From Podospora anserina (lineage: Eukaryota): a stretch of 64,000 nucleotides of DNA. The position numbers were made by a program, and so were the translations under genes. The stretch is taken from the NCBI GenBank assembly GCA_017654855.1, contig CM030332.1, positions 3,348,001-3,412,000 on the forward strand. Reading direction: 5' to 3'. Position 1 is the first letter of the stretch. Each line of letters starts with the position of its first letter. Below, piece by piece: positions 2,981 to 64,000 of the stretch. The notes beneath the pieces are model-generated. The model did not search any database. It had not been told where the DNA came from and worked only from the letters and a program-made list of their open reading frames with translations.

Positions 2981-3713
2981 AGATTTCGATTCTTGTTCAT
3001 GACTTGACAATATGGGGGGGTTTGAGGTGGTTTTTTCTTGGATATACTTTTTTCTTCTTTTTCCTTTTTCCTTTTTTTTTTTTTTTTTGGATTTGGGCTT
3101 TGAGGTCGACATACATCCAACTCATTCTTATATAGCAAGCGAGCGAGCGCGCACCTTGTTTTTATAAATATTCCACACATATAATAGATATTCCTTTGGC
3201 CAAGATGATGCGCCACTTTCATGCCAAGTGCTTCCATTGAGGTTTGCTTGTCGGTATTGAAAGTTCATGAAGAATTAACCATCCTGATCAACTAATTAGT
3301 TTCAACAACTTTCTTCATGTCAGTCTTCAATGTAAGTTTACTCCTTTAGTCCATCAACTGCCAAACGCTCATTTACGTCACTTTTCGCACCGGTATAGTC
3401 GCGGCAACCCCCCACCTTAAGCTCAAACAAGCTCTTATCTCTCGCCAGCTTCCCCTCCATGGTGTCCTCGGAGAAAGCGATATCCTGCCGGCAGAGATCG
3501 CTACCACAACCGACAGGTCTCATTGGACCCTGGTGTAAGTGCTGAAGATAAAGGCAGAGGAGCAGAACAGGATTGCTGCATTTCCGCTGAGGGTTATAAG
3601 GCCTGGAACCTTTTTACCTGAGTTATATACAAACTGCCTCTCCCAGGCTCTTCTATTTCCAACTGCCTTCTTGATTTGTTTTTGTTGTTGTTTGTAAAGT
3701 TTACATCAGCGCC

Positions 3714-4847: not shown

Positions 4848-5471
4848 GGTCTGGGCGGTTTACTGGCGAAAGAGATGCTGGAGCAAGGGAACCTATTCAT
4901 TACCTAGCTTTTGGGGGATAGTTCAAGAGAATCTATGTTTGGGATCAGGATGAAGAGCAATAACCTTGGAGGTGTGTCAAGCAACACAAATATACTGGTT
5001 TTGTTGATCGTTCTTGTTTGTTATCACGTAATTTTCAGAGCAAGCAAGTCCATGGATGGTGCTCCAGATCAAGTTTACGCTTGGCCCATGCACACCTAGA
5101 AAAGGGGCAACAGGTAGCAGTACTTATCAGGGACTATACTATTCTTCCCCAAGTGGTAGACTCTTGGAAAGCTTATAGACGGCACACAACAACAGCGCAA
5201 GCGGGCGATAAAGCCCAGCTGACACACAGCAAAAGACTACGTTTTAGGGGTGGATTGTTGGTTGGTACACAGGAGGCCAGCGGCAGTGCTCGCACGATGC
5301 GATACGTCAAGTGAGACTCTCTCAGAACTAGTTTATACAAAGGGAATACAACTGCCCTCCCTTGCCCCACATCTCTTTTTCCTGCTCACTCTCGGTGTAT
5401 GGTTGATGATGGGAAGAAAAAGGCGAGCTTCTATCACGCAAAGAACCGCTTTTTTGACACTAAACGGCAAT

Positions 5472-6725
5472 TTACATGTCCGCAGAGGCGGTGGCACCAG
5501 TGATAATTTCAACCAACTCGCCGGTAATGACGGCCTGGCGGGTGCGGTTGAAGAGAATCTGGTACTTGCTGATCATCTCACCAGCGTTCTTGGAAGCGTT
5601 CTGTGACGGGTGGGTCAGATACCAGTTCATGAAACTCGTATGAGTAAAACAAAAACTTACATCCATGGCGTTGCGGCGGGCAGAGATCTCGCAAGCGTGA
5701 CCCTCAGCAAGAGCCCAGTAGAGTGAGTTGGCAAGGGTGTACTCGCGGAGGTTGGGAAGGACACCCTCCTCGACCTCGAAAGCGGCAAAGTTGGCTATTA
5801 CAGCAAAAATTAGCCAGAGGTTCATCAAGACATTCATGCATCGAGACAAGGTCTACGCACGGGAGTTGGCAAAGGCCTCCTCGGAAAATCCCTCAATGAT
5901 GGTGGGCTCGTAGCTGGTGGCGTTGATGAACTTGTTGTAGAGAATCTCAACCTCGGAGTAGTCGCCCTGGAGCTGGACGATCTGGTCGACGATGGACTGA
6001 GCCTCGGTGAAGGTGGGGACGTCCTTGCCAACACCAGAGAAGTTCAGGACGATGTTCTTAGCATGCGTACGGGAGAGCTGGGCCTTGGCCTTCTCGCCGA
6101 GGATGACGAGGTCGAAGTTGTCCCCCTCGGTGGCAGCCCTTCGGCGGATGAAGCGGGCAAGACCAGAGTGAACACCACCGCAAAGACCCTTGTCGGAGCT
6201 GCAGACGACGACGAGCTTCTTCTTGCCCTCGCCCTCGAGGGGCTTTGTCTCGGCCGACTGGTAGACCTTGTTGCTGGTCTCGCCGTAGCTGCGCGACTCG
6301 GTCATGGCACGCTGGGCACGGTTGAGCTTGGTCGAGGCAACGATCTTCATCGTCTTGGTGATCTTCTCGATGTTGCGAATCGACTTGAGGCGGCCCTCGA
6401 TTTCACGGAGGGTAGCGAAGGTGGCGGCCGGAGCAGCAGCCCTGCATGTCGCAACCGTGGGTTAGTATTTTGTGTTCTTGCTGCATTGTCCTCTTTTCTT
6501 TCCGTCTTCATCTATGCCATCTTCCCCAACCCGGAGATGCTCTCTCTCCACCAGACCGAAATATATCGTGTGTTGTTGTGCTGTCGGTGCTGCTCGGGCC
6601 TCTCGACGGCTTTTGCTAGGGAGCTCGGGGCATGACGAAAAAGTCCAGGGAAAGGCATTTGCAACATACCGGGAGGAGGCGGCAGCGCCGGCTCTCAAAG
6701 CCGGACGGGCAGCTCTTGACAGCAT
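5472..6725 (-). CDS. atp3: Mitochondrial F1Fo ATP synthase gamma subunit
   Basis: Arg-rich presequence MLSRAARPALR; ATLREIEGRLKSIRNIEKITKTMKIVAS, SSDKGLCGG, ISARRNAMD/NASKNA, RTRQAVITGELVEIITGA; several GT-AG introns. Confidence 0.97.
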
Positions 6726-7594
6726 GGCGAAAGGATCTGGGGATAGTTCTCTGCTGGCTGGCTGTGGCCCCGGTTGACCACGATAAATGTGCTGGCGTCA
6801 ATTGAGCAGCAGCAGCGGGAGGTTGTGGCTCAATCGATCGGAGGTGCAATTGGCGTGAGAGGTTTGCTGAGCTTCGGCTCCACACGGACCACACCCCATC
6901 CCGCTTCCTGCTCGTGCCTCCCGTCCGCCCTCTCAGCCTGTTGTGGCTTGTCTTTCCGTGTTTCCAGGGTTCCCGGCAGTGGGCGGGGCACCTCAGAGGC
7001 TGACTTGCCAGTGTTTGACAGCTGGCAGAGACCGGAATTCCAGTGTTGGATGCTCTCTTCAGGGCCCCACCAGAAAAGATGGTACTAGCTTAGTCATGGC
7101 TTGCTTTTCTCTTCACGCTACGAAACTTGAGCTGCGTGTCTGCGAAGAAGGCTACCTTACCAAGGCTGGCCAAGTGTGGATCCCCCCGTGGCCCATAATT
7201 ATCTTTAACCTCGTCCTGTCGCCCCAGCTCTGCTTGGACTCGTGGAATCCCTCTTTTTTCCCCTGCCTGGTTCTTCCTTCTCACCTCACACGTTCTCTGT
7301 CTCACGCATTGCCTTGCCCTATAGACCAGAGGCCTCGACTGCGCGTCTTTCCCTCATCCAAAAACCCCCGACTTTCCCTTCAGGAGCCGAGCAACATTCC
7401 TTCCCCTTCCGAGAGCCGGCCTTTCTTACAGGACTCGGCCAGTTTTGCTTTTTGCGAATCGCCCATTTTCCAGTCTACGCCTACCGTCTTTGACGACTGC
7501 GCCGCTTCGCACCTTCCTCGCCAGCCAACTCCGCTTCGTCTTCGTTGACCGATCGATTTTAATATCAATCAAAACTCTGCAATCAAACTTGATC

Positions 7595-10500
7595 ATGGCT
7601 TCCGACAGTTCTGACGATGACAGGCCTTTGGCAGGCACGAACGGTCACAGTAAGTTTAACTACTCGGTGCCAGAGAAGAGATATTCTCTCGCTCTGCAAC
7701 ACCAATTTTTCGCCCCTTCACGGTATGCACTGTGACACGCCCTGGTATTCGTGCCAGGTTGACGTGGCACAGTCCTCACCGCGAGCTTTCGACTGCTTGC
7801 ACTCGCCTGCCTTCTTGCAGGCCTCGTGCAGTTGAATGCTATTGTTGCTTGACGCGCAGTCGAAGCACAACCACGGCAAGAAGCAACCTCACTGACATTC
7901 TCACCATCAGAGTCCGCTCCCAAGATCTCACCAGCCACCGACCGCAAGATGGATAAACTCGCTTCCAGGGCCCGTCCGGCGCCCCCGAACGTCTCGATTC
8001 GCAACGGCCCTGTGGAAGACAACGCGATGGACATCGACACCACACCCAACGGAGGCCCCAAGCGGAAAGCGCGCAGCTCTGTTGGTCAGACGGTCAGTTA
8101 CAAGGACGAGTCGGACAGTGACAATGGCGCACCACTGGTAGGTCATCTCGGTTATCATGTGTACAACTCCTTTAGCTTACCATCTCCCAGGCCAAGCGTC
8201 AAAAGTCCAAACACAAGCAAGAAGACTCCGATAGTGACGATGAGCCAATTGCGAGAAAGAAGAATGGCGCCAGGTTGCCTCCTTCCATCAAGAACACCGC
8301 CATGGTTGATTCCTCCGATGATGACCAGCCTCTAGGAACCAAGATCGCTCAGAGGAAGGCGGCGATTGAGAAGTCTGCTGGCAAGAAGAAGCCGGCTGCG
8401 AAGAAGGCGATCAAAGACGAGTCGGATGACGAGCCGCTGGCTAAGCCCAAGAAGCGTCAATCAAATGGTGTCTCGGCCGCGAAAAAGACCAACGGCGTCA
8501 AGAAAGAAGAGTCGGATTCGGATTCGGATGCCCCCATCGCCAAGAAGGTGAAGAAGGAGGCTCCTGCCAAAGCCAAGGTCAAGGCCGCTGCTGCTCCTGC
8601 CAAAAAGGGCAGGTTGGTCAAGGAGGAATCGGTGGCCAACAGTGCTGCTGACGAAGAGGAAGAGGAGGAGTATCGGTGGTGGGACGCGCCAAAGAAGGAG
8701 GATGATTCCATCAAGTGGACCACCTTGGAGCACAATGGTGTCCTCTTCCCGCCCGCCTACGAGCCTCTCCCCAAGGATGTCAAGCTCATATACGACGGCA
8801 CGCCGGTCAATTTGCATGTGGATGCCGAGGAGGTGGCGACATTTTTCGGTGCGATGCTTCATTCCACCCAGAACGTCGAGAATCCCACCTTCCAGAAGAA
8901 CTTCTTTAAAGATTTCAGGGATGTTCTCAAGGAGACCGGTGGTGCCAAAGACCAGAATGGCAAGCCTGTTGACATCAAAGAGTTCGCCAAGCTCGACTTC
9001 ACCAAGATCTTTGAGTACTACAAGGGTCTCAGCGAAGCGAAAAAGGCTCGCCCGGCTGCTGAGAAGAAGGCGGAAAAGGCTGAGAAGGACAAGTTCGAGG
9101 CGCCCTACATGTACTGCAAGTGGGATGGCCGGAAAGAAAAGGTGGGCAACTTCCGCGTCGAACCGCCTGGACTTTTCCGTGGCCGTGGTGAGCATCCCAA
9201 AACCGGCACTGTCAAGAAGCGTGTCATGCCTGAGCAAGTCACGATCAACATCGGCAAGGAGGCCAAGGTCCCAGATCCGCCGGCCGGACACAAGTGGAAG
9301 GCTGTGCAACACGATAACAAGGCGACATGGCTCGCCATGTGGCAGGAGAACGTCAACGGCAATTACAAGTATGTGATGCTGGCTGCCAACAGTACCGTCA
9401 AAGGCCAAGCCGACTACAAGAAGTTTGAGAAGGCTCGCGAGCTCAACAAGCATATTGCGAGGATCCGAGCCGACTATACCGCTGAGCTCAAGTCCGAGAT
9501 TATGGCTGAACGACAACGCGCCACCGCCATGTATCTCATTGACAAGTTTGCGCTCAGAGCTGGCAATGAGAAGGACACCGAGAACGAGGCCGAGACGGTA
9601 GGCTGCTGTTCGCTCAAGTTCGAACACGTTACACTCAGGGAGCCCAACACGGTTATTTTTGACTTCCTGGGCAAAGACAGTATCCGCTTCTACAACGAGT
9701 TCACGGTGGAACGGCAGGTCTTCAAGAACTTGAAGCTGTTCAAGAAGCCTCCAAAGGCGGATGGTGATGACATTTTTGACAGGCTCACGGTAAGTTTTGA
9801 TCGCTTTTGAGAAGGGCCCGCAGCTAGTCACTAACGCATCTGGCAGACCTCTCAACTCAACAAGCATCTCTCCAACTACATGCCCGGCCTCACAGCAAAG
9901 GTGTTCCGTACCTACAATGCCTCCCACACGATGTCAACACTTCTTCAATCTCTCTCGGTCGAAAACAGGACCATGGCTGAGAAGATCAAGCTGTACAACG
10001 ATTGCAACCGTGAGGTGGCCGTGATTTGCAATCACAAGCGTACGGTTGGCGCAGCCCACGAGGCGCAAATGGAGAAGCTTGCAGACCGCATCAAGGGCCT
10101 CAAGTATCAGAAGTGGCGCACCAAGATGATGATGCTTGATCTCGATCCCAAGCTTAAGAAGAAGAAGGGCGCCGAGTACTTTGCACTCGACGAGGACATT
10201 ACCCAGGAGTGGCTCTTGGAACACCAGAAGTTCCTTGTGGAGGAGCAGAGGACCAAGATCCAGAAGAAGTTTGAGAAGGACAACGAGAAGCGCGTTGCCG
10301 ATGGCGAAGCTGAGTTGGACGAAAAGGAGCTCAAGGAGCGCCTCAGGGTGGCTGCGGAGCTCGAAGCCAAGTACAAGAAGGAGAACAAGACCAAGAAGGT
10401 GGAGGCCGAGGGCAAGGGCCCCGCCGTCGAGAAGCTTGAGGCGGCCGTCAGCAAGTTTGATGACCGCATCAAGACGCTCGAACTGCAATGTGCTGATCGT

Positions 10501-10741
10501 GAGGGCAACAAGGAGGTGGCCCTGGGCACATCCAAGATCGTGAGTTTTGTCGCAATGAAGTCTTGTTTTCGATGTTTCGTACTAACCTGGTCCCTTCCAG
10601 AACTACATCGATCCCCGTCTCACAGTCGTTTTCGCCAAGAAGTTCAACGTTCCTATTGAGAAGTTCTTCTCCAAGACGCTACGCGACAAGTTCAAGTGGG
10701 CGATTGAGTCGGTCGGCGACGACGACACGTGGGAGTTCTGA
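7595..10741 (+). CDS. top1: DNA topoisomerase I (type IB)
   Basis: [56 protein letters not shown]; catalytic-Tyr region GTSKI|NYIDPR restored by splicing intron 10540-10600. Confidence 0.97.
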
Positions 10742-11823
10742 GCACACGTACAAGATCGGCTCCTTTTATCTATCTATTCTAATGCTGTATACTATATATC
10801 TTGGCCAACCTTCGCTGCAAGCCACCTTTTACGATATTCACGCATTGCATTCCAGACGACCACGGTCCGGCTACCCACATATTGGCCCCTTTGCTACACG
10901 GCGGGCTTCCGCCAATTGAGGCGAGGCGCAGTTTCGACGTTTCCCACTTTGCAATCTGGTCTGGGGCGACTGGCGTTGGTTTATGGGGCCAAAATGGAGT
11001 TCAGGGGAAAGAGGTGAAAAAAGAGAGGAAGGGGATGGATATCCTATAAGGATCCCAAAGGAGTAAAACACCACAGACAGTTAGCATAAAGAAGCGTTGA
11101 ATTATATCATGATGCGATGCAGCGGTTTCTTGCTTGAACATCAGGAATTCAGTGAAGTCATTGTTTCATTCTCTGCCAAGGATTCCATGCCTGATGACAG
11201 CAGAACAGATTCCGGTCGTGCTTGGGTTGCTTGTACCGAGATCTTGCTTGCTTGACCGTTGGTGATTGCATAAGGTGGGTTTCGCCAAGACCTCGCCCAC
11301 ACCAGCCACCCGATGAATGGCTTGGCGGGCACGGCGGGCGATTCTGTGCCCGGCGCCGGGGCACCCGCCAACTTTCTCGCCGAGTTTCGATCCACATTCC
11401 CAACCTCCTCTGAAAACTAGACGAGCGGACGCGCCGCAATCCCTGCTGAGCTGGACCCTATCTTTTTGGTGCTGGGACGAGACTGATGACGACAATTGGA
11501 GGGTGGTTGGGATGATGTGTTTCTTTCCTTGGGAGGTTGTTGGTGGTGGTAGTTGGTGGTGGGGGTGATGGATAAAACCGAGGGAGTGGCCTGGTTTTGG
11601 GGGGAGCTGCAGGTTGCTCTCTTCCCGCCTTTTTTTGTTGATGTTCACTATAAGAGGATAATTTCTATAGTTCCATTGTTGGGGAGAAGACAGCAAGAAA
11701 TACTTTTGACGGGACTCGACTACCTTATTCTTTTCTGGTTGCTCCCAGTGGATTGTTATCCCTTACATTTTGACGACATCTTCGACGGGTGATCCGGCTG
11801 AGACCGGCAGATAACAACACAAG

Positions 11824-13346
11824 ATGATGTTCTCCAAACGATGGAAGACAGCGCTTACAGCCTCCACCGCACTGGTGACTGGGGTTTTGGCACAGACATG
11901 GAGTGATTGTAACCCATTACACAGCAAGTCTCTTCCCACTATGATCTCCTCCAAAACAACCTCATTAACAAGCCTTTAGCAACCTGCCCCGCCAACACAG
12001 CCCTCGGCATGACAATCAACGTCGACTTCCGCCGCGGCTCGGTCGACTCCTTCATCGCCTCCGGCGGCGCCCCCTCCTACTCCTCCGACGGCGTGACCTT
12101 CTCCGTCTCCCGCCCCGGCGAAGCCCCCCAGCTCTCCTCGCTGTTCTACATCATGTTTGGCAGGGTGGAGGTAACGATGAAAGCCGCCCCCGGAGCCGGG
12201 ATTGTCTCCTCGCTAGTCTTGCTGTCGGACACGCTAGACGAGATTGATTTCGAATGGCTAGGCGCAGACGACAGTGAAGTGCAGACGAATTACTTCTCAA
12301 AGGGGCAGACGACGACGTATAACAGGGGGCAGTTCAACCCTGCGCCGAATAATCAGGGGGAGTTTATCACTTACATTATTGACTGGACGCCGCAGAGGAT
12401 TCAATGGTATGTTGGGGGAACGTTGGTCAGGACGTTGGGGTATGATGAGGCGGAGGGGCAGTTTCCTCAGACGCCGATGCAGGTTAAGTTTGGGGCTTGG
12501 TCTGGGGGGGACAGCGCGACGAATCCTCCTGGGACGGTGGAGTGGGCTAGGGGCCCGACGGATTACTCTCGAGGGCCGTTTAGTATGGTTGTGAGGGGTG
12601 CGGTGGTGACGGATTATAGCACGGGGAAGAGTTATACTTATGGGGATAATAGTGGGACGTGGCAGAGTATTAGGTCGGAGGGGGGGAAGGTTTATGGGAA
12701 TAGTGGTGGGGCGGGGGGGATTACGGTTACGGCGAGCGCGGCGCCGGTGGCGACGGATGTGAGTCCTACTGTCCCGGTTGGGGGGATTGGGCAGGGGGAT
12801 ACGGCTACGCAGACGGGGTGGCCTTGGGAGCCTACCGGGACGGATGGGGGGAGGGGGGGGCAGGGGGCGATTCCGGAGGGGTGGAGGATTACGCCGGATG
12901 GGAAGTTGAGGCCGGTTGGGGGTAGCACTGTGAGTGAGTAACGTTCTTTGTCCCCTGATAGAAGAGCTGAGCGCGCTCGGGAAGAGTGGTTTCACTTCTC
13001 GGTGTCTTGGAGTGGAAGGCTAACTTTGTGATGGTAGACACCCCCAATCCCGTGCTCTTGCTTGGGCCATTCTTCCTCTTCGTCGTCACCATCGGTTGTG
13101 GACGGTGGAATTTCTTCTCGGTCTGAGAATATTTTGACGACGACGACCTTTACAACTTTTGTTACGGAGACCACTCCTACAGTTTCTGGTCCTGGAGGTG
13201 GCTCAAGTTCCGCGGACACACCGAACTCTGGAGAAGCGCCGCCTCCAGAACCACTTGGGGCACCGCCGCAGAACGAGGCAGGGGGGAAGTTGATGCCTTT
13301 GATGATGGCACCGTTGGTGCTGGGTGCTGGTGTTTTGTTGCTTTGA
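11824..13346 (+). CDS. GH16 Crh/Crf-family cell-wall transglycosylase, secreted, probably GPI-anchored
   Basis: Signal peptide then QTWSDCNPL..TCP; FYIMFGRVEV, GIVSS, catalytic DEIDFEW, FPQTPM; Ser/Thr/Gly-rich stalk; hydrophobic C-terminus. Introns 11924-11979 (GC-AG) and 12930-13037. Confidence 0.92.
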
Positions 13347-14244
13347 GTATGAGCGGGTTTGGCTTTTTGCATTTTGGGCATGGCGTTCGGGAAAGGGGAA
13401 ACATACCATGGGTTTGGGGCTTTAACATGATTGATGGGATAGACAGTATGGGGGATTGTAGATGAGTAGACATTTCACTCGGGTGAAGGACATAAATATG
13501 CATAATTATTGACCAGTTTCATAACATAGTGCCAGTGGCAGTGATGTGATGACGTTTGTAAGGTAGCGTTGCTCCTGCCTCGAGGGCATGGTTTGCTCCT
13601 TCCTGGGGAGTGCAGCCGTCAGGTGACTGTGGGCAGATTCTGCACCATCTATTTCTCAAGAGGATTGAAGATTGGAATCACGGCAACTTTGCAACAAACC
13701 TCCGGCTGACAACTGATCGAGACATACAACGCACCCCGGATCACGCCACCGGCTTATCCTACAGGAAAGTCCAATTCCAAACCCATGCAATCTCTCCTTG
13801 CCAGACTTGGACTCACATCTTTGTTGTTTACGTTTATTGAATTCTTTTCTGTCCCCATCCACCAACCTCCCGCTGGGGCGACGGCTATGTATGCTATATC
13901 CAACGGCAGCCTCAAGGGCGCTCGTTGTAACTGACTGATATACAAGACAGCTCGGGAAACCCGTAGCTCGAGGTACTATCTTTAACAAAGTTCATAAGTC
14001 ATAATAAGCTAACCGGTGCGTCCATCTAGGTGATTACTGGGCTGATGAGGTTGGCGTTGTGAAACGTAAATGGGGGCAGGTGTGCGGTAAGCTCTGCTGC
14101 CATGGCTGGAACGTAAACCGGCGACGATGCCTTCAAATTGGCAAAGTCGAATTCCTCCGTCAAAAAAACAATATGTTGTTGAGTCAACCGTTGATAGCAA
14201 TCCAGGCTATAACAAACAGTCACGCAAAACGTTGTGGCGGCAGT

Positions 14245-14847
14245 TCAACCACCGAGAAGTTGGGCCTTTTCTTCGTCCTTGGTCGCTCCAGAACCAGTCT
14301 TGAGCAACCTGTACAGACTATGTCCTGAGATGCTTAGGGTCATAGCCGCGCATGTGGCCCAGGGTAAGTACCCCAGGAGGATCAGGTGGGCGCTCTCTCG
14401 ACGTGCATATCCAACAAGAGCTGCAGCACCGAGAAGCGTGGTGTACACAAATAGTTGAAGAGGATCTTGGCTCTGTCGTCGCTGGGTAAACGAAGACACG
14501 GCGCAACCAAAGACCAGGCATGAGAAGAGCATCAGCCCCGGGGATGGATGAAAAAGGAAGTCATCGGTGGTGGTGGTGGGTTGGTCTGCATGCTGCTGCT
14601 GCCCTCGGTCGATCTGGACGTCGATTAGCTGGGGATCAAGAGGCTGGGCTTGGCGATGACTTGGACTGACTCTGCTGTATCCTCGATTGATATCGTTTTG
14701 AACGGTGTATTCCCAGGTGACAACACTACAGAGAGTGCCTAAGCAGATCTCGACAGTGTCAATCGCCCAGGGCCAACACCCAGGGTTCCGAAGTAAGACT
14801 GTGGGTGTTTGCGGTAGGTGGAGAGGGCAGCATGCTTCTGAACTCAT
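14245..14847 (-). CDS. Hypothetical small membrane protein (start uncertain)
   Basis: 200-aa ORF whose last ~95 aa contain three hydrophobic segments (LMLFSCLVFGCAVSSF; LFVYTTLLGAAALVGY; LILLGYLPWATCAAMTLSI) and a charged tail. Confidence 0.5.
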   Translation of the reverse strand: MSSEACCPLHLPQTPTVLLRNPGCWPWAIDTVEICLGTLCSVVTWEYTVQNDINRGYSRVSPSHRQAQPLDPQLIDVQIDRGQQQHADQPTTTTDDFLFHPSPGLMLFSCLVFGCAVSSFTQRRQSQDPLQLFVYTTLLGAAALVGYARRESAHLILLGYLPWATCAAMTLSISGHSLYRLLKTGSGATKDEEKAQLLGG

Positions 14848-15964
14848 GGAGACAGCAATTGGCTAACTTGGGAATAGAATGAACTCTGAGATCGGTAAGT
14901 GCCGAGGACTTTGATGGGTCTTGTTCTCGGAATTGGCACGAGGTCTCCCAGAACAAAACCCCAAAATCAACCTCAAATGCCTGGGTTCTTCTTGACTATT
15001 ATACGAAAGGAACACCGGAGGTTTCTGCATCATTGATACCTTGCTACAAGGCTGGGACCTCGTCAAACAAATGCTGAAGCGCCGTACGGGCTACCTGAAA
15101 TCCAGTTCCCTGCCTTTCCGGTATTGATGCTTCGCATCCATCGGATATCATCACACCAAGTGCGGCTCACCAGACTCATGCACCAACATCCACGCCCGAG
15201 TGGTTGCATTCTTGTCCCTCAATCTTATTCCAATCCAGTAACGATAGGCGAGAAGTGCGCGGGCTCTGATTCAGAGGCCTCTTCGTGATGCCGCGTGTGC
15301 ATGAGCAGCAAGGCGACCACATGCTGCAGGAAGAGATGCCTCACCATGGCGAGGCTGACCTCCAGGCAGACAGCTCTCACCGAGACTACGGGCCAATCGC
15401 CCCCCACCATTATTTTGAGCCTCACCAGGCGAACCACCCCGCGCACCATCTCAAGCATGCGAACCGAATTATCTGACGCTTCAGAGAAGCTCAAAGAGGT
15501 ACCGAAACGCTCCCTTTTTTTGTGCCCGCGTGGGTTTCGTCTTCATATCAAGGAAGCTGAGCGAGTTTGCATGTAAGTGCATCCATACATTCTTGTCGGA
15601 TTTGTTGCCATTGGCGCCCCCCGCATCTTTTGGCGGCCTTACTTATCTGCAACGTTCACTTCGACTACGTGGTGAGGCGAAGCTGCGCCATCTACAGGTA
15701 GAGCTAGCTATCAGAGCTTGGTATTTGGAAAACGCTACTAAGCTCCCCTCGTAGGTGGGCGGTAAAAAGTCCAGGCCCTCCCCTTCAGACCGTCAAGCAT
15801 TTTTTCCCCCTCTCGTCTCTGGATTCTGTTTATTCGTATACACTGCAACCAACTCGCCCCAACATCGCCCCTTTTCTTTCTACACCACCTCGCGATCTCG
15901 CCAGACATTAGGCAGCAAAGGCCATAGGAGCTTTCAACCCTCATCCTATTGCCACTTCTGCACG

Positions 15965-16860
15965 ATGGAGCGCCCCGGTTTTCCCCATGGGCAGCTGCCT
16001 CCACGAGCGCGAGATCAAGATGTTCATAGTAAGGCCAAAATCTTGTCCTGCGGTGGCATGATTGGCACATCTATTCTTTTCCCCTTGGCCAACGGCGAAG
16101 GGAACTCCTTCCGTACCATGTGAGTAAAACTGTGTAGGCCATACGATAGAAGATACTAACAGAGTCACAGCACACTCATTCTGTTCATCATCACGGCTAT
16201 TGCGTTCCACGCAATCTATACAGAGCCGTTCATTAGGTACTTTTGTCCACGACTGTCACGCCGCACGTGTTTTTTCTCTAACAATCATCTAGATCTGGAC
16301 CTTCCACGGCCCCAGTTGCCTTGGTCCTATTATTGCTTGTTGTCATTGCCGCAGGCCCTACTAGGAAGGACCTGGTGCCTTGGCTTCCGCTCTTCGTAAC
16401 AGCCTGGAGTCTTGTCACTCTTATGATTAACAAGCACATGGCAACCGCGTCACCACACCTGTCAATATCAGCCGACTATCCCTTTACAGGCGTCACAATT
16501 GGAGCTGCAACGGAGCGGTCCTTCCGGTCCATGTCCAGTCAGGACAGGCGCCAGCCCCAGTTTGAATCCAACCGCCAAAACCCATTGTACTTTGGACGAC
16601 ATGGTCCACCCTCCAGGTATTCCCAGAGGACAAGCACAATGAGTTCAGACATTTCTCTTTCCAGCATGCCAGCGCAACGCCAGGAGTACTGGGATCCTCA
16701 CACCCAGGCCTTTTTTGACAATCAGGAGATGCAGGAACTTGCCCGGGATTTGCCAGAGCCCACTCTTCCCAGGACTCAGCATGACCAAGAGAGTGACTTG
16801 AACACAGAAACTGAGACTCAGGCGTCAGAGACGGCCCGCTTCTTGCTTGGTCGTCAATAA
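15965..16860 (+). CDS. Hypothetical membrane protein, 3 exons
   Basis: Splicing at GTGAGT (16120)..CAG and GTAC..TAG joins MERPGFPHG.. / TLILFIITAIAFHAIY / VALVLLLLVVIAAG..DLVPWLPLFVTAWSLVTLMI into one frame with 3-4 TM segments and a polar C-terminal tail. Confidence 0.6.
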
Positions 16861-17874
16861 ACAGCCGCGTGCTCTGTTTAGTCACAGCTTGTTTATCTCT
16901 TTGGTTTCCTTCTTTGCTTCTTCTCCGTTTCTACATTCTTCACGCCAGGTCCGGGCCGGTTTTACCTACCCTGGCAATCCACACCGTCCGCTGGAATCAA
17001 CCGGATGGATATACACTAATAATACCTTGAACACAAGGCCAAGGACATAGCAACACTTTCATCCCCGAGGCCTATCATCCCTTTCACATCACGGACGGCA
17101 CGATCATCGACATATTTGTGGGATGTACCAAAAGCTGTCCCGCCAATCCACACCTTCTGAAGTTTGCCGGGTCTTTTACTGTACTCGGGCTCTTCCTTGC
17201 ACGATAGATTGGGTGGCTTTGTCATATCCCTCCTCTCTCGCCGTCTCAACCATCACCATCCCGCACACGTACATGCACATGGCACATAAGGTCTGACACC
17301 CGAACATATCACCATATTGCCTATACAACTGGTTCCGGTGTTAGAGTACGACGACGAGCGTTTTTCTGTCGCATAGGAGGTAGCCATGATTTCCTGTCCC
17401 TTGAGCGATATCATTCCCCCCATTTTTTTCATTTACGGTGTTGCCTCTACATAGAGAGCATGGGCGGGAACCACAGCCATGCGGGATCATTTATTATACG
17501 TTTTGAGGGAAAGGGAACAGTTCAGTTTTTCTTTTCATCAACATCATCAACATCAACTTCATCAACATCATCAATATTATCATCAACAGCGAGCGGCACC
17601 CCAAACAAACAACAACAACAAAAGTTTTTCAGTGGACGTCTTGTCAAAAACATGAGACGCAATCCACGCTTCGACCGATCGACACCAATTATCTCGGACA
17701 CGAAGAACAACATGGCATGGCATGAAATGACACCAACCCTAATGAAAGGGACAAATCGTTCCCAAATAATTTTATCATGATGAAAATCTCAAGAAAGAAA
17801 TCTTGTATATAGAACATGCCATGAACGGAAACAGAACCTTGTATATAGCTTACAGACATCAGCGGGGGTACACC

Positions 17875-17875
<1 letters not shown>

Positions 17876-17920
<45 letters not shown>
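17876..17920. repeat. (CA)n microsatellite
   Basis: About 22 perfect CA units. Confidence 0.95.
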
Positions 17921-17922
<2 letters not shown>

Positions 17923-18632
17923 AAGGCAACACGGAAAAGAAGTGTGTGTGTATATGGTTCTCTTTTTGTCAGGGGAAAGGGAGAAACCCACCGCCTCGGT
18001 TCTTGTTTTCAATCTGGAGTTAACGACTTTGATCGGCTCAGGATTGTTTAAATCCTCCCTATTGGAGGTGGTGATTCGACAGAAGGAACTCACCTATACG
18101 ACGAGCCCTGCCTGGTGCGATCATTTCGCCCATAAAAGGAAGCCATCCTATTGATGGATCAAAAGGCAGAGAACCACAGATGATATCATTTGCCACAACC
18201 CCGTTTCCTGATACAATCAATCCCTCGCTGGTGCCGGGGAAGGGAAAAAATGGGGGGAATGTATATAGCTCGGTCGGTGTATTGAATACAATACAATAAA
18301 GCAATAAAACGTACTCTAAAAATTCACGACATTGAACTTGGTTGCAATTGTTTTTGGTAGATTTAATTTGGGGGATAGATAGCCCTAAGACAGGACAGTC
18401 AGGTGGTGATGATGAACTCCCATAACCTAAGATGTTTTTCTTCACCAAGGTGGACTGACTTTAAGCCTCCCATGGGCTTTGCTTGAAGAGAGGATTGGAT
18501 TATATCTCTTTAAACAAGCCAATGAAGCGGCTTAATATCCACCCAGGTTAAGAAAAGAAAAAACCGTCTTGGATATTTGGGGGAACCATCACCAACACTT
18601 TTTTTTTTTTTTTGAGCAAGACTAAATAAAAA

Positions 18633-20615
18633 CTAGAGCCTGAAACTCTCCCTCACCGCCTCGCCCAACCGCCTGATAGCCTCAGTCATATTCCCCGGCG
18701 TAGCAGCCGCAAACGTAGCCCTGAAGAACAGCCCCGTCGGCGCCACCTCCTGCTGGGCACGAAACCAACTCCCCCTTGCGATGAGCACTCCCTTGTCGAT
18801 ACAAGACTCGAAAATCTCTTCTTCAATCTCGAGAATAGATTTTGTTCTCGAGTCCGGGTGGAGGGTGTGGTCTAGGTGGAGCCATTGCTGTCATATATCA
18901 GCGACTATACCAAGGGTAAAGGGGGGTAAAAAAACAAAAAGAAAAAAAAAAAAACAACTCACAAACATGCCCGCCCTCACAACACCCCAACTCACCACCT
19001 CTTTGGGTAAATACTCCTCGCACGCCTTGAAGAGCGTGTTCCTTCTTTCGGTGTACTCTCTCTGCAGCACCATCAACCACTTTAGATACCCCTCGTGACC
19101 CCACGTCTCGTCGAGTAGTTTATGTAAAATGACCTGAGAGAACCCGCTGGGTCCCTGGTTGGCGACTTCGGCGTGTCGGAGGAAGCGCTCGACGAGTTGG
19201 TCTGAGGCGGTGAGCCAGCCTAGTCTTGAGCCGGGGACTAGGACTTTGGAGAAGGAGTCCATTCTGATGACTCGCCCGTCCGTGTCCATGCTTAACAAAG
19301 TTGGGAGGAGGGAGTCGAGGAAGTCGGTTGTGTTGGAAGGGGCAGGGGTAGGGGTTGGGGTGATGGTGGGCGGGAGTTGCAGGTAGTAATATGGTTCGTC
19401 TTCGATGATCACCAGATCGTGCTTGGAGCAGATGTCGTAGATTTGCTTTCTTCGCTCTGGGCCTTGGGTTGCTCCTGTTGGGTTCTGACCGGATGGCACC
19501 GTGTATAAGACGTGTGGTTTTCGCTTGTTGTCCCGTTCGGAAGGGCTCCATGTTGAGAGGATGTGGTCTAGTTCGGAGGGGATAAGGCCTTGCTCGTCGA
19601 TGGGGACGCCAAAGGTGGGGATGCCCAAAGGGTGGGCTGTTTCCAAGGCCGTTGCAAAAGAGAATTCTTCTGTGAGAATGGAGTCGTTTCTGGAGGAGTC
19701 GCAGAGCATGCGGAGGGTTTGCTCTAAAGCACCGGTCGAGCCGACGGTGAGGCAGGTTTTCCAGTCGGCGTAGGGGGGGTTGGAGACGAGTTCCGTGTGT
19801 TCGGTTACGAAGCGGATGAGTTGGGCCGAGCCATGTGCTTGAGCGTAGTTGAGTGAGATGGAAAGGTCGTATTCTTTTTGGACTGGGGCTGAGGGATGGG
19901 TGTCGTATTTGCCGATGGTGATGTCTTGGAAGGCGGGGTGGACCTCTGGGGGCGAGAGAGTTGGGTTGTGAAGGTAATCTGGGACGGAGAGGGAGATGGA
20001 GTTGATGGGGAAGTACTCTGGGCACGGAAGGCCACCGCCGAGTGAGATGATGCCAGGGGTTTTGAGGTGGCGGGCAGCTTGTTTGAGCTTGCATGGTTCG
20101 CGGATAGAAGCTTCGTAGGAGAGATGATCTGTTTCACGTTAATAAACGTTCCAAAGTTGGTGAGGGGGGGGGGACATACGGCTCATATCCTTTGCCATCG
20201 GCTTTCCTGATGACTGTTGAAGCTATGTCAGCTTGACAATAAATAACGGTTCATGAGTGGCACTTACATCCCCCTTGAAAACCCCTGAATCACACCCCGC
20301 CGCCGTCGGGGCCACCAACCTCCCTGCCCTCCTCCTCCTCTCCAAAATCTCGCCAATAGTCACCCTCTTATTCTTCGTCGGTGTCTCTGGGATATCTGGC
20401 AACTCAACCTCAGGCAGAGGTGAAGGGCCACCAATCACCGTCGCCTCGGCAGCCGAATCTAACTTTGGTCTGCTGTGAAATGATGCCTGTTGGCCATTGT
20501 TGCTTTGAGCTTTCTTATAATTGTTGATGAAACCCGGCCGAGACGTCAAACCCCAACTCCGAGACCGGGGCACCACAGCAGCGGCCCCGGAGCCGAGACA
20601 GGCAGCTCTCCGCAT
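18633..20615 (-). CDS. PLP-dependent aromatic amino acid / 2-aminoadipate aminotransferase (Aro8-like, class I/II)
   Basis: ISLGGGLP, LNYAQAHGS, LYTVPSGQNPTG, IIEDEPYY, PLP-lysine motif DSFSKVLVPGSRLGW, FFRATFAA; GT-AG introns; start codon uncertain. Confidence 0.92.
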
Positions 20616-58314: not shown

Positions 58315-60703
58315 ATGGCGTTTCAGTGGTTCGTCGGTTTGTTGGGGGCGGTGTACACCATTTTGTTGTCGCCTCTGTTTGGGACTGGGAGTGCCGATTC
58401 TGGTCCGGATGCGAGGATACGGTTTGAAGAGGTTGAGCAGCAGCAGCAGCAGCAGCAGCCAACAGGCACGGCTGGTGGTGGTAAACGTCCCAACAACACC
58501 CGTCATGATCATCAACACCACGGAAGGGGGCCAAAGCTGTTTTTGTTGTCGGCATGGGACATGCTGCTTGACGTGCTCTCTTTTTGGCGGCAGGTATGTC
58601 TCCCCCAACCCTCACCCTATCTATTATTTTCAGATCTAACCAACTGTTGATGATGTATAGAAAATCATAACCCACTACACCAACCCCACCCCCCTGACCC
58701 TCTACCTCTCCACCCTCCACTCCGCCAGAACGTTTGAACAGTGGGAGGAGGCGGCGCTCAATCTGGATACGTTGCTCGGGCTGGACCTCTGGAGGAACAA
58801 CCCTGTCTCTTCACACTACGACTTCAAGCTGATCAACGAGCGGCTGGTGAGTATTGAGATTGCGAGGGAGACGGGGGACGTGCACTCGCTGGTTAACCTG
58901 CTGAGGAGTGGCTTGGTGAGGAACTTGGGGAATATCACCGCCACGAAGCTGTACAACCGGGCGTTTGCGGGGACAAAGTTTTTGATTGAGGAGTATGTTA
59001 GGGCTGTGGCGGAGGGGGTAGAGGATATTGGGAGCTTGCCTTCGCCAGGGGAGACGTCGGCGGTGGGGTATGTTGTTGATGGTGGTAGGGGGGTTCCAAG
59101 GGGTGGTGGTGTCGCGAGGCAGGGGCATCATGTTAGTTTTGAGGATAATAATGGGGAGAGTAGCACCGGTGGGGAGGGGAGCAGTAGCGGTAGGGAGAGG
59201 AGGCAGACGCTTAGTGTGATGACGACAAGGGGGGAGAGTACTGCCGCCGGAGGGGGGAATGGGACGCCAGAGGTGGACTGGGGGGGTCTGAGTGTTGCTA
59301 GCCCCCCGGGCGGTAGTCATTTGCCTGAGGGGGGGAGGATGGTTGCTACCATGTCTACGCAGGCGAAGCTGGATTTTATACATGATACGAGACAGGCTTT
59401 TGGGAGGACGGCGTTGGTTTTGCAAGGGGGGGCGATTTTCGGTTTGTGTCACTTGGGGGTGGTGAAAGCTTTGTTTTTGAGGGGGCTGTTGCCGAGGATT
59501 ATTGTGGGCACGGCGACGGGGGCGTTGATTGCTGCGTTGGTGGCGGTTCATTCCGAGGAGGAGCTGCCGAGGGTGCTGAAGGGGGATGGGATTGACCTGA
59601 GCGCGTTTGCGAAGCAGGGGCAGGATCCGGTCAAGCATAACAAGGGGTTGAGGGAGTCGATGTGGTCGAGGTGGGCTACGCTGGTGAGGAGGGTGCGGAG
59701 GTTTAGGAGGGAGGGCTATTTTCTGGATGTGAAGGTGTTGGAGGAGTGTATCAAGAGTAACATTGGGGATTTGACCTTTGAGGAGGCGTATCATCGGAGC
59801 AAGAGGGTGTTGAACATCACGGTTGCTACGGCTGGGCATGGGGGTGTGCCGACGTTGTTGAATTACTTGACGGCTCCTAACGTGGTATGTACCGCCCTTT
59901 TCACCCAAAGTCATGGGCATGGCTAACATCCACAGCTAATCTGGACCGCCGCCGTCGCCTCCAACGCCTCCACACCCACCTTCTACGGCCACCGTCAAAC
60001 CAAGATCCTCTGCAAAGACTCCCAAGGCAACATCGTCCCCTGGAAGCCCGCCAACGAAGTCGACTTCAACCACTGGACCAACGCCTCCTACACCGAGCAA
60101 GAATCCCCCCTCCTCCGCATCGCCGAGCTCTTCAACGTGAACCACTTCATCGTCAGCCAAGCCCGCCCCTACCTCATCCCCTTCCTGCAAAGCGACATGC
60201 ACGGCCCCTCCATGGTCGAAACCCGCAACAAGACCATGTCTGGCATGGCCTTCATCATGCGCATGGTCGGGCTCGAGCTCCGACACCGCCTCCGCCAGCT
60301 CGACACACTCCAGCTGCTCCCAGCGGGTATCCGTCGGTTCCTTGTGGACGAGCGGGTGCCGGGCGCGAGCATGATGCTTGTTCCCGAGGTGACGGCTGGT
60401 GACTTTGTCCGGCTGATGGAAACCCCCACCAAGGAAACGCTGGAGTATTGGATCCTGAGGGGTGAGCGTAGTGTCTGGCCGGCTGTGGCGGCGCTCAAGA
60501 TTCGCTGTGCGGTGGAGGAGGAGCTGGATAGGGCTTACCAGGTTGCCAGACGGCTCAAGGCTGGGGGGTTAAGGAGGAAGACGAGTCATATGCAGACGCC
60601 CATGTTGGGCGATTTAGAGAACCCGGAATTGGGGGTTGAGCAGGAGAGGAAGGAAAGGTTTAGGGCTCATAGCGCCAGTGCGAGAGGTTCACCTACTGCA
60701 TGA
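58315..60703 (+). CDS. Patatin-like triacylglycerol lipase homolog (Tgl3/4/SDP1 family)
   Basis: FEQWEEAA..LD..LG.D.WR, LLRSGLVRNLGNI, AFGRTALVLQGGAIFGLCHLGVVKAL, DLTFEEAY, LLNYLTAPNV, ELFNVNHFIVSQARP, I.RGERSVWP; two introns. Confidence 0.9.
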
Positions 60704-60893: not shown

Positions 60894-62068
60894 CTAAACC
60901 TTGTCCCTGAAGCTATGGATGCTCGACTCTCCCTTTGCGATGTAGTACACCATAATCACGCCGCCAACCTGGGAGGCAGCCAGGAAAGTGTTGGGATCCG
61001 AAACCGCCTTATCACCTGCGGCGGCCGAGTCTCCCCAAGTTCCGTCCTCGTTGCGAACCACGCGCTGGAGCTTTCCACCCTTCTGCATGAAGTAGTAGAG
61101 ATACAGCTTGGTGCCCTTGTCCGTGCTTACGGGAACCAGAGCAAGGCCGGTGCAATCACGGGAGTCGTCTGTGTTCGGAATCACGGTATCTTGTTACAGA
61201 GAGGCTACACGTCAGCTTTTCGCTCATAGAAGAAAGAAAGGCGGGCATGGTGGTTCAAAAGACGGGGAGTTTTTTTATTTCTTTATTTCTTTACCATTTT
61301 CACTGGTCGACTCGACGATGCGGAGGTTGTCTTCGTTTTGGTAGACGATGAGCTTCTTTCTTGGCGGCTGGATCGTAGACGGCTGCGAGGTTGCTGGCAA
61401 CCAGGGGTGGCTTGGTGTCGAGGGGCTTGGTGATGAGGTCCTCGCCTCTTGAGCTGGGACGACCAACCGATTGAGAACTCGGTGATGCGTGGCTTTTCTT
61501 CGGTCCCGCTGTGTTTTGTTCAGAGAGAGTAGTTGTTGTCAGTTCTCGACTTGATTCTTGGGACGAAAACATGGAAAGGGGATGAGTGGATGGATGTGGT
61601 CGTACGTCATGCAGTATATATATCCTTGGCCCTCGGCGACAATTGTGGTCATGGCAACTCCGATCACGGTATTGGTCGGGCCATCCGGTAGGAGGAGCTT
61701 ATAGACAGGGCTCAGTTGGGCCAGACGCTTGGGTGCAATGGCATCGACGGCGGCGGTGCCCTTTTGAGGTGCGCTCTGGACGAGACCGTAGAGATTGAGC
61801 TACGTTCTGTTAGGATAGAGCCATGAGCGGGGGCTTCTGAGGAAATCCCCCTCACCAATTTCTCGTTGTATAAAGCGCTGAAGGAACCCGGGTTCACGAT
61901 CTTGGAGTCGACAGGGGCCGAGAGGTTGTCTGCGAACGCAGTGGCCGTGGTCTTCTCTGCGCCAACATGGTGGAGCTCGAGGGCAGGGGTCTGGTTGCTG
62001 GACAGATAGTAGAGGAGGACCTGCTCTTTGTCGAGGGGGTTGACGAGACTGGAAAGCGGGCAAGACAT
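60894..62068 (-). pseudogene. Frameshifted gene for a putative fucose-lectin-like beta-propeller protein
   Basis: Four-exon model from MSCPLSSLVNPL (ATG 62068) to SFRDKV*; recurring beta-strand motifs (QVLLYYL, LNLYGL, LIVYQ, LYLYYF..GKLQRVVRNEDGTWG, IMVYY); third exon needs two +1 frame changes (near 61465 and 61355). Confidence 0.55.
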
Positions 62069-62949
62069 GGTGATGATGATGTGTGGCAAAATGATTTGGG
62101 AAGCCCTGCGTCTCCCATACCATAAGGATCGCGGTCCAACTCTTATATACAACTAGCTGTCTTGCTGCCTCCAGCTCTTCTTTGTCGAACTTCACATTGT
62201 CACTGGAGCCCTCCTCAGCCACCCACAGGTGGTTCCAGGGCGGTATTCCGACTACCTTATTGGCTTTGCTTGCACCTAACCGTGACGGTATGAACTTGCT
62301 GAGGCCACAAGTATTGTTCCCTTCCGGTACAATCTCTCCGGCAATGAGCTCATGGCGGAATCTAGAACCGGTTCTTAGGTGTGGTCCGACTCGGAGGCGA
62401 CTGGTCACTCTACCATACTGAATGCAATTAGGTCTAGTGTCCACAAAAGCACACTCTACAGTCAGCCCCAGGAATCCAGCTCTGCCTTTGGGGAACTTTT
62501 CAGCCAGCCGTTCCTTCATAGCCACCGTTCTAGGCTAGAAAATTCACCACAGTGTCCAGATCCATTGGGGACATCTTCGTCACTTGCGGGTTAGGTACCT
62601 TTATGGGGGTCAAGTCATGGGTAGGGGACGAGAACACGAGCCAATGGCTTCGTGTTTGTCTTATCTATCTGGTTAGATGTTCCAATCGGTCTCCCGGCAG
62701 CTTGCTTGTCTGGAGCTTGTCCGGAGGTTGTCTGGAGGTTCTGGACTCAATGTCCGACAACACGCATAATTCACAACTCCCTCACAACTCCTCCACCCAC
62801 GTCTAGCCAAGCGGCCAATCTCAACACTAAGGTTGGATACCTACCTAACATGGGTATCCGCGGGCCGGTATGTTCTTTTACTGCTCCATCCAGACTTTGG
62901 CACAATCTATCATCGACAAACAAACAGCTCAAGCTCCGTATTTGCAGCC

Positions 62950-63499
62950 ATGTCAGGTGCCGCAGCGTCACCAAGAAACCTCGTTCTGCGAAATGGGACC
63001 CAGGCGCAGAAATCAGTGACTCCGGTTGACCTCGAACCCAAACCGGACATCGGCGAGGGCAACCAGCGGCTGCATTCATTCTACCGTCCCGGGCTTGTTG
63101 CAGGCACCTATAACATTGATGTCGAACAGGATATCGCCAAGTACAGCCCATCTCCAGGCGAACGCTTTGCAGACATCCCGGCCCAAGACAAATTAGATTC
63201 GAAAAAGAGCAGCAAGAGCTTCACAGTCATCGCTCCAGTATTCCCTCCCCCCCGGTTCCCTGAACACGTCATATCCAGCCCCAGGACATCAAACACCTCA
63301 CACCACCCTTCCGCATGTGGTCTTGAACGATCCCCAGCTGCCCTGGGAGAGGGTCGGCAGTGAGGGCGAGTTGTCAACGGATTCCCCAGAGCATCAAGAT
63401 GCTCTTTCCAAAACAAGGACGCCTTGGTTGGCTGTCGTTGTCTTCACGCAGGATGAGATCATGCTTCCTCCTGAGGCAGAGGCAAGCTTCCAAAGTTGA
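62950..63499 (+). pseudogene. Frameshifted, 3'-truncated conserved hypothetical protein of the type recalled next to DUF6603 genes
   Basis: LHSFYRPGLVAGTYNIDVEQ..FTVIA[frameshift ~63235][42 protein letters not shown], then stop at 63497-63499. Confidence 0.65.
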
Positions 63500-63534
63500 C
63501 ATCGAACGTCGTTACCGGTGATGGAAGCAGAGCA

Positions 63535-64000
63535 GAAGTCGATGACGCCCTCCACCCCGACGGAAACACCCCCCTCGGCGGTGAAGTGGAAGGGCTTGTA
63601 GTTGATCAAGAAGTCGGCATAGGCGTTGAACCAGGCCCGCAATGGCCCGGCTCGGAGAGTGACATCAAGACGGCCGCCTCCCATGCACATCTTGGGGGTG
63701 ACGGCGAAGTAGGCCTCTCCCGTGATGCTGATGCGGCTGCTGAGAGGCCAGCTTATGCCTAGCCGTGGGGGCACGGGGTAGTGGGCAGGCGGCTTGAAGG
63801 AGCGGTGGTAGCCGCCAATGGTGAAGACCCAGTCCCCTCTGAGGTCTGGGTCAGGACTGTCGAACCAGGAGTACACGGCGAACCCGCCAGTGAGGTGACA
63901 ATTGGGGTCCAAGACATAGGAAGCGGGCATCAGTTGTCCTTCGATCTTCATGACCCCCAGGGCAACATCCACCGTGGCGGACAAGCCCAGTTCAACATGC
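63535..64000 (-). pseudogene. DUF6603-like domain protein, 5' part outside window, apparently truncated at 3' end
   Basis: [94 protein letters not shown]; protein-like sequence ends near 63535 and the frame runs on into the antisense of the neighbouring gene (stop 63394). Confidence 0.7.

Follow-up and report, generated by a model that had tools for sequence, protein, structure and literature searches.

A probable relic of a DUF6603 gene module, shared by fungi and bacteria, in Podospora anserina

The 64,000 nucleotides of Podospora anserina DNA analysed here (assembly GCA_017654855.1, contig CM030332.1, positions 3,348,001 to 3,412,000 of the forward strand; this whole stretch is called the window below) end in three adjacent genes, which raise the question of whether they belong to one system and whether that system is still functional. 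An original prediction, made from the letters and a list of open reading frames (ORFs), regarded them as the remnant of a multi-gene module consisting of a protein with the DUF6603 domain, a partner protein with an 'LPWER' motif and a lectin-like propeller protein. All three features were found where the prediction had placed them (ORF list, sequence and frame translations), and none of them is a chance finding. The evidence described below indicates that the window copy is very probably the dead relic of a multi-gene module, to which the DUF6603 gene and its 'LPWER' partner belong.

Two truncated genes are joined at the end of the window

The predicted DUF6603 identity of the last gene was confirmed by a Pfam scan. 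The minus-strand frame 63394-63999, which encodes the GGYH...PPRLG motif, matched PF20248 with an E value of 8.4e-70 and 236.2 bits, the cut-off being 27. The match covers positions 242-400 of the 502 positions of the profile, i.e. the middle of the domain; a complete domain (profile positions ~1-502) in an open gene was not found, and the N-terminal side lies beyond 64000. By tblastn, 63999-63517 corresponds to residues 528-688 of P0001, a protein of Cercophora samala, with 94% identity. The homology ends with '...DFCSASIT' at 63517, a point beyond which the domain extends in P0001, P0003, P0005 and P0006; the window frame remains open past this point, with an unrelated sequence. What is left of the DUF6603 gene (family F1) is a minus-strand fragment (63517-64000) that is cut on its C-terminal side and runs off the end of the window. 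In general, the closest protein matches of the window are from Sordariales, chiefly C. samala, and the genes are spliced eukaryotic genes.

The adjacent gene belongs to the 'LPWER' family, for which the name F0 is used here, and derives from a gene for a partner protein of ~1170 amino acids (aa). The motifs PGLVAGTY, LPHVVLNDPQLPWER and PWLAVVVF are encoded in the plus-strand segment 62950-63499, spread over two frames. Alignment with P0122, the full-length relative from C. samala (1174 aa, 88% identity), gave two tblastn pieces, in which residues 1-101 correspond to 62950-63252 and residues 97-183 to 63236-63496. The full-length proteins P0123 (Naviculisporaceae sp.) and P0124 (Cladorrhinum sp.), both of 1212 aa, are more distant (67-68% identity); for none of these three relatives is a Pfam domain recorded. 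The F0 relic (62950-63496, plus strand) retains codons 1-183 of about 1174 and is interrupted by a 2-bp frameshift at 63232/63233. The stumps of F0 and DUF6603 abut tail to tail at a joint of 20 bases (63497-63516) which, judged from the ends of the tblastn matches and from the sequence, match neither relative. The first three bases of the joint, TGA, serve as the stop codon of the F0 relic.

The stretch is contained in 20 public runs of one organism, originating from 10 studies, and contigs from four of these runs (X3, X13, X15 and X18, from four studies) were compared with the window. Because the contigs of all four runs cross the joint without loose ends, the joint is no assembly artefact. 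Behind position 63232 the contigs of X15 and X18 have an inserted 'CT', which opens the F0 frame and which is missing in X3, X13 and the window. Protein P0121, recorded on 33 contigs, is 183 aa long and 99% identical, has the frame open and ends with the same residue as the window ORF. The truncation thus appears to be common to the compared strains (four of four runs) and to P0121, and the 2-bp indel in F0 is a polymorphism that arose after the truncation. A shared truncation combined with an indel that varies between strains is how an unconstrained sequence behaves. It was appropriate to call these genes remnants and to ask for frame correction. The window copy does nothing for this fungus.

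F0 and DUF6603 are linked in bacteria and fungi

F0 is a large family: a phmmer search with P0122 against 1.84 billion representatives returned 3639 matches at E values up to 0.001 and 612 at E values up to 1e-30. With an alignment of 28 F0 members (A1), 16 loci were found in bacterial genomes, and an alignment-based scan of metagenomes added 79, giving 95 loci in total. A metagenome scan with the single protein P0122 produced 465 pattern matches, none of which was confirmed. The 16 bacterial loci are from Chitinophaga (six), Trichodesmium, Crocosphaera, Microcoleaceae, Dapis, an alphaproteobacterial metagenome-assembled genome (MAG), Bacillota MAGs, Blastocatellia, Desulfosporosinus, Lachnoclostridium and Holdemania.

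F0 is immediately preceded by a DUF6603 gene of the same orientation in 14 of the 16 bacterial loci if scored by hidden Markov model (HMM) and in 15 if scored by BLAST cluster; the gap between the two genes is 4 bp in Chitinophaga. Locus L005 ends 1.2 kb upstream of F0 and has no upstream flank. DUF6603 was present in 12 of the 18 metagenome loci in which F0 is flanked by 5 kb or more on either side, and in seven of the 12 well-flanked loci with the long, fungal-type F0. For each of the three named fungi that are nearest, the contig recorded for DUF6603 and that recorded for F0 have the same length (176145, 111704 and 721648 bp), and in Naviculisporaceae the pair carries the locus tags V8F20_009866 and V8F20_009868. 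The pairing of the 'LPWER' protein with DUF6603 in fungi and bacteria, which the original prediction had put forward, is borne out by these data.

F0 is split into two adjacent ORFs of ~470 aa and ~275-297 aa in the alphaproteobacterial MAG (L001) and in four Bacillota (L003, L008, L010 and L014). Elsewhere in bacteria it is a single gene of ~660-720 aa.

The phyletic distribution was determined in 201 genomes sampled from the bacterial family to which L006 belongs and in 14 control genomes. DUF6603 was detected in 20 of the 201 genomes and in none of the controls, in agreement with the patchy distribution that had been proposed. F0 was detected in ten genomes, all of them within the 20 and with F0 on the same contig as DUF6603; the distance was within ~4 kb in nine and ~12 kb in one. 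None of the 181 genomes free of DUF6603 contained F0. The expectation that all three genes would co-occur elsewhere holds for F0 with DUF6603 (10/20 versus 0/181) but is not supported for the lectin-like gene (0 of the 95 loci).

The DUF6603-bearing genomes without an F0 match were G043, G049, G097, G101, G103, G108, G183, G185, G186 and G189. Nine of these have DUF6603 ORFs of ~1090-1230 aa, and in G097 the ORF is 406 aa long and is located at a contig end. These ten genomes may represent a second context of DUF6603, with another partner.

Two more families belong to the module

The prediction of a multi-gene system was supported by the finding of two more members, F2 and a variable fourth gene, when further families were sought by clustering of neighbouring genes and by HMM searches. 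F2 proteins are 1100-1450 aa long and belong to no Pfam or NCBIfam family. F2 was present in 14 of the 16 bacterial loci, in 17 of the 18 metagenome loci with flanks of at least 5 kb and in all 12 well-flanked fungal-type long-F0 loci. F3 (600-1180 aa) was found in 11 of the 16 bacterial loci by HMM and in ten by BLAST cluster. The C-terminus of F3 is a tail-collar fibre domain in Trichodesmium (Pfam Collar, 4.1e-13; phrog_523, 7e-21) and a beta-propeller in Chitinophaga, and weak Collar or Gp10_C matches were obtained for L001 and L007. In other bacteria the gene directly after F2 is unrelated to F3 and encodes binding-type repeats or no recognised domain: proteins of ~650-900 aa with a terminal beta-propeller were found in L072, L089, L092, L093 and L094, two BspA-type leucine-rich repeat (LRR) proteins in L014, and proteins with no known domain in L003, L004 and L008. 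By hhalign, no relatedness was detected among F0, F1, F2 and F3, nor between F3 and the X3 family of propeller proteins.

The order of the genes is F1-F0-F2-F3 in Chitinophaga and in the alphaproteobacterium, and F2-F1-F3-F0 in cyanobacteria, and in fungal-type loci every order and orientation of the module genes occurs. Taking these observations together, the F0-F1-F2 module is almost certainly real. It is conserved across kingdoms, in Bacteroidota, Cyanobacteria, Proteobacteria, Bacillota, Acidobacteria and many Ascomycota.

Several other genes were seen at these loci. In fungal-type loci three ORFs recur: X1, which is membrane-protein-like (13 loci), X2 (10 loci) and X4, which is probably the first exon of F2; none of the three has a relative in the window. 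Related large ORFs lie within 10 kb of the fungal-type modules in L021 (16273-18303), L038 (15973-18459) and L051 (1556-3409), and the only one of them that was scanned, in L038, has a HET domain (2.3e-28). Three Bacillota operons contain F6, a gene with a Hint/intein-like domain (Pfam Hom_end_hint, 8.7e-09; L003 18022-19749, L008 8307-10007, L010 11603-13303), and in L008 and L010 a DUF6765 gene (9.5e-22) is situated between F0 and F2. The Chitinophaga modules L006, L011, L012 and L013 have one or two genes of ~660-700 aa just upstream of DUF6603; that of L006, the only one scanned, is LanM-N-terminal-like (DUF4135, 1.9e-18; TIGR03897, 5.9e-18, the latter far under the cut-off). In L016 (Chitinophaga sp. 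E66, 2248-19630) the entire module, F4, F1, F0, F2, F3 and F5, is fragmented into many short ORFs, which is a second, independent decay of the system.

Comparison with known families, folds and systems

The window fragment and all F1 proteins match PF20248 far above the cut-off. The Pfam entry describes a domain without function or context; its linkage to F0, F2 and a variable binder emerged from the present analysis. The F0 proteins P0122, P0123 and P0126 matched no Pfam family above threshold, PHROGs and NCBIfam had no match for F0, F1 or F2, and searches of PDB sequences with single proteins and with the profiles A2, A3 and A4 gave nothing below an E value of 0.06. A protein atlas lists P0122 as 'hypothetical protein, Ascomycota', and none of the 8.1 million PMC papers and 0.36 million preprints searched mentions DUF6603 or PF20248. 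As far as these searches reach, the module is undescribed, and none of its three core proteins can be assigned to a family whose function is known.

The AlphaFold model of P0001 (predicted local distance difference test, pLDDT, 81.6; predicted template-modelling score, pTM, 0.65) is nearly all beta, with ~26 long antiparallel strands in residues 265-721. The top Foldseek rows for the DUF6603 domain were the largest membrane barrels (LptD, SlpA, FimD and SprA), with TM scores not exceeding 0.2, and VIA-align ranked porin-type meanders first. Our reading of the model is that the domain is a predicted very large meander sheet or barrel that has no specific relative. The model of P0122 (pLDDT 83.4, pTM 0.71) is a multi-domain alpha/beta protein, in which fold matches are confined to a C-terminal immunoglobulin-like sandwich, past the end of the similarity to bacterial F0 (~residue 780). 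A complex prediction for DUF6603 residues 262-730 with F0 residues 1-530, run without alignments, scored 0.00 and speaks neither for nor against a complex. No signal peptide or clear membrane helix was found in F0, F1, F2 or F3, and fungal F0 and DUF6603 proteins also start without a signal peptide.

The giant outer-membrane beta-barrels (LptD, FimD usher, SprA and porins) are the best fold rows, and the modelled DUF6603 domain resembles them in its up-and-down antiparallel meander of ~26 strands. However, the TM scores do not exceed 0.2, the root-mean-square deviation (rmsd) is 12-15 A, DUF6603 has no signal peptide, and the family is present in organisms that lack an outer membrane of this kind, namely Bacillota and fungi. 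The modelled likeness is one of topology only.

Tc (ABC) toxins and RHS/YD-shell proteins are encoded in clusters of genes for very large proteins, form an all-beta shell, have a targeting part, are patchily spread and lack classical signal peptides. The module, too, consists of several very large proteins, and TcdB2-TccC3 and teneurin were among the Foldseek rows. These rows were weak (probability 0.38 and 0.07, TM scores up to 0.09), however, and no RHS/YD, SpvB or TcdB Pfam domain was found in P0003, P0006, P0122, P0123, P0126 or the scanned bacterial F2 and F3 proteins.

The tail-collar fibre domain of the Trichodesmium F3, with the weak matches in L001 and L007, is reminiscent of phage tail fibres, baseplates, tailocins and contractile injection systems, and a cytoplasmic assembly of proteins that lack signal peptides would be in keeping with this. 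In contrast, PHROGs gave nothing for the three core families, comparison of the F0 model with viral models returned nothing specific, and no sheath, tube, spike or baseplate family was detected among the ORFs scanned in L001, L003, L004, L006, L008 and L014 (part of the ORFs). Known anti-phage defence systems gave no match either: PADLOC-DB 2.0 found no family for seven proteins of F0, F1, F2 and F3.

Possible function of the intact module

The original prediction had considered a conflict, toxin-delivery or defence complex as a possibility. Our tentative proposal, which we regard as possible rather than probable, is that the intact module encodes a conflict machine that is assembled cytoplasmically and directed at other organisms. 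In it the DUF6603 domain, giant and beta-barrel-like, would act as a cage or pore, F0 and F2 would be structural or enzymatic subunits, and the fourth, variable protein, be it a beta-propeller, a tail-collar fibre or an LRR protein, would aim the machine at its target. The machine would act following release from the producer cell. This proposal is suggested by the large cytosolic subunits, the cage-like beta domain in the model, the swappable and outward-looking binder, the Hint gene in some operons, the patchy spread and the frequent decay (L016 and the window). A more specific version, in which F0, DUF6603, F2 and the swappable binder would form an undescribed conflict machine built on a soluble beta-barrel cage and spread over at least five bacterial phyla and Ascomycota, with stand-alone fungal binders such as the propeller 'lectin' replacing the bacterial propeller subunit, is quite unlikely to hold in full. 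Such a replacement would explain why the lectin-like gene decayed alongside the module.

Several observations weigh against a conflict machine of this kind. Neither F0, F1 and F2 nor the scanned neighbours yielded a toxin, enzyme, sheath, tube or spike family, and the fold matches have a high rmsd and are generic. In none of the 12 well-flanked fungal-type loci was F3 found, so fungi would be without the proposed aiming part. Finally, DUF6603 is able to stand without F0, as ten of the 20 DUF6603-bearing genomes of the bacterial family gave no F0 match.

The strongest competitor of this proposal is an intracellular immune or sensor complex, directed against phages in bacteria and against viruses, or serving allorecognition, in fungi, with the variable repeat protein as the sensor. 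Every part of the module looks cytosolic, distribution is patchy and decay frequent, and sensors made of repeats, for instance beta-propellers and LRRs, are a typical feature of immune proteins. The upstream genes in L001 include a patatin-like gene and an HNH gene, and HET-domain genes are found near fungal-type modules at three loci, although their proximity may be due to chance because HET domains are common in fungi. On the other hand, PADLOC models matched none of the seven proteins tried, Pfam scans of F0, F1 and F2 revealed no effector domain such as a nucleoside triphosphatase, a nuclease or TIR, and the tail-collar domains point outward. We consider an immune function unlikely and rank the conflict machine above it.

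Origin of the joint

The structure of the relic is most likely the product of a single deletion. In this Sordariales fungus F0 and DUF6603 would have been arranged tail to tail, and one deletion would have removed codons 184 to the end of F0, the spacer and the C-terminal part of DUF6603, its endpoint in the latter corresponding to residue 688 of P0001. The stumps would have been left joined at 63497-63516 and would then have drifted, as seen in the indel that differs between strains, and the adjacent propeller gene would have decayed too. Intact, convergent and adjacent F0/DUF6603 pairs do exist, with gaps of 455 bp and 387 bp, in the fungal-type metagenome loci L052 and L055, respectively. 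If the ancestral order was that of L052 and L055, one deletion suffices to produce exactly the structure of the window.

Two findings speak against this scenario. There is one gene tag between DUF6603 and F0 in Naviculisporaceae, so the two genes may not have been directly adjacent, tail to tail, in this lineage. The second is P0135, a 623-aa F0 fragment that is 86% identical to residues 408-997 of P0122 and ends in ~40 out-of-frame residues; it represents either the part of the gene that is missing here, from this species, or another copy, in decay, from a close relative. As P0135 could be the missing part of F0, located elsewhere, the joint might have arisen by a rearrangement, i.e. by an inversion or translocation that left the other halves of F0 and DUF6603 elsewhere in the genome. 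The identity of P0135, little different from that of the window stump (88%), its out-of-frame tail and the widely varying order and orientation of the genes in fungal-type loci would be compatible with such an event. P0135 begins, however, at residue 408 and not at 184; moreover, tblastn found no second piece of either gene anywhere in the window, and L052 and L055 display the very order for which one deletion is sufficient. A rearrangement is therefore, in our estimation, rather improbable, and a single deletion remains the preferred explanation.

The propeller-like gene

The third gene (60894-62068, minus strand) is the ortholog of the C. samala protein P0133 and is spliced, with a broken frame. 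Its exons are 62068-61856, 61799-61606, 61508-61295 and 61189-60897, followed by the stop codon (60894-60896). P0133 has 305 aa, arranged in about six repeats of ~50 aa, and is labelled 'Fucose-specific lectin' in UniRef; in the last exon the window is 92% identical to it. In run X18, one contig omits 61190-61294 and 61509-61605, both of which are bounded by GT..AG on the minus strand. As this contig skips introns, the propeller gene is transcribed and spliced, and X18 is in practice RNA; this status of X18 rests only on its spliced contig, none of the runs being recorded as RNA. The first intron is inferred only, X18 having no cover at 61763-61976, the region in which it lies.

Exon 61295-61508, which is contiguous within the X18 contig, matches P0133 only if three frames are combined, the frame breaking near 61451-61462 and again near 61350-61362. 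Read along the spliced sequence, the product falls out of register after ~150 residues and meets a stop two codons into the last exon. The propeller gene is a transcribed pseudogene whose restoration needs two frameshifts.

One X18 contig, of 3537 bases, covers 62427-64000, including the stumps of F0 and DUF6603 with their joint, and extends 1961 bases beyond the window. It has a word depth of 35.9, compared with ~5 for the propeller gene. The F0/DUF6603 relic may be transcribed as well, strand and level not being readable from contigs.

The prediction had made the propeller-like protein a member of the module, serving as its recognition component. This was not confirmed, as tblastn and phmmer found no relative of P0133 in any of the 95 loci. 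Its lectin label, and with it the putative sugar binding, comes from UniRef alone. P0133 resembles the fungal fucose-specific lectins of the six-bladed AAL/AFL propeller type in its UniRef name, its length of 305 aa and its approximately six repeats; in contrast to them, it has no sequence match to a Pfam lectin or to any solved structure (PDB, E up to 10), and the window copy is frame-broken. In Pfam no family, lectins included, was matched at E values up to 10, apart from a peptidase propeller at chance level.

It could be argued that the propeller-like protein was nevertheless a true recognition subunit of the fungal module, specific for this lineage. The gene is arranged head to head with F0 here, P0133, P0122 and P0001 are encoded on C. 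samala contigs of the same size (176145 bp), the gene decayed along with the module, and a terminal beta-propeller is common in the product of the bacterial gene that follows F2 (L006, L011, L012, L013, L072, L089, L092, L093 and L094). But relatives of P0133 are absent from the 95 loci and a word-based protein search gave a single homolog, that of C. samala. P0133 has no detectable similarity to the bacterial F3 or X3 proteins and is without their long N-terminal part, and decay of both in one species amounts to one event. Such a role seems to us improbable.

It is hardly conceivable that the genes are intact and that errors of assembly or sequencing produced the frame breaks and the joint: both breaks of the propeller gene do sit in short runs (TCCC and AAGAAAG), but the identical joint occurs in the contigs of all four runs from four studies, the 2-bp difference splits X15 and X18 from X3, X13 and the window, and the spliced X18 contig contains exon 61295-61508 gapless relative to the window.

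Spacer and flanking gene

The divergent relics of the propeller gene and F0 are separated by a spacer (62069-62949, delimited from the ORF list). It contains a minus-strand ORF of 124 aa (62153-62525), for which recognition in the protein atlas was low; a Pfam scan of 61800-62525 gave no match. An X18 contig covers 62068-62438, and the ORF may represent the 5' leader of the transcript of the propeller gene. A gene for a patatin-like lipase (58772-60703, plus strand) is the last ordinary one to precede the relics, with DUF3336 (E 1.9e-24) and Patatin (E 1.7e-16) matches in its first long ORF and a continuation in 60137-60703. Remnants of F2 or F3 were not found within the window (tblastn, E up to 10); in L052, F2 is located on the side that corresponds to the region beyond 64000.

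Conclusions

The explanation given here for this locus, comprising the relic, the module and its mechanism, is on balance likely to be correct. A widespread cross-kingdom system whose binding domains can be exchanged makes a good candidate for a conflict or delivery machine of a new kind, and culturable bacteria such as Chitinophaga make the module directly testable. In the fungus, the relic presents what may be a transcribed pair of pseudogenes and dates a loss event within one lineage.

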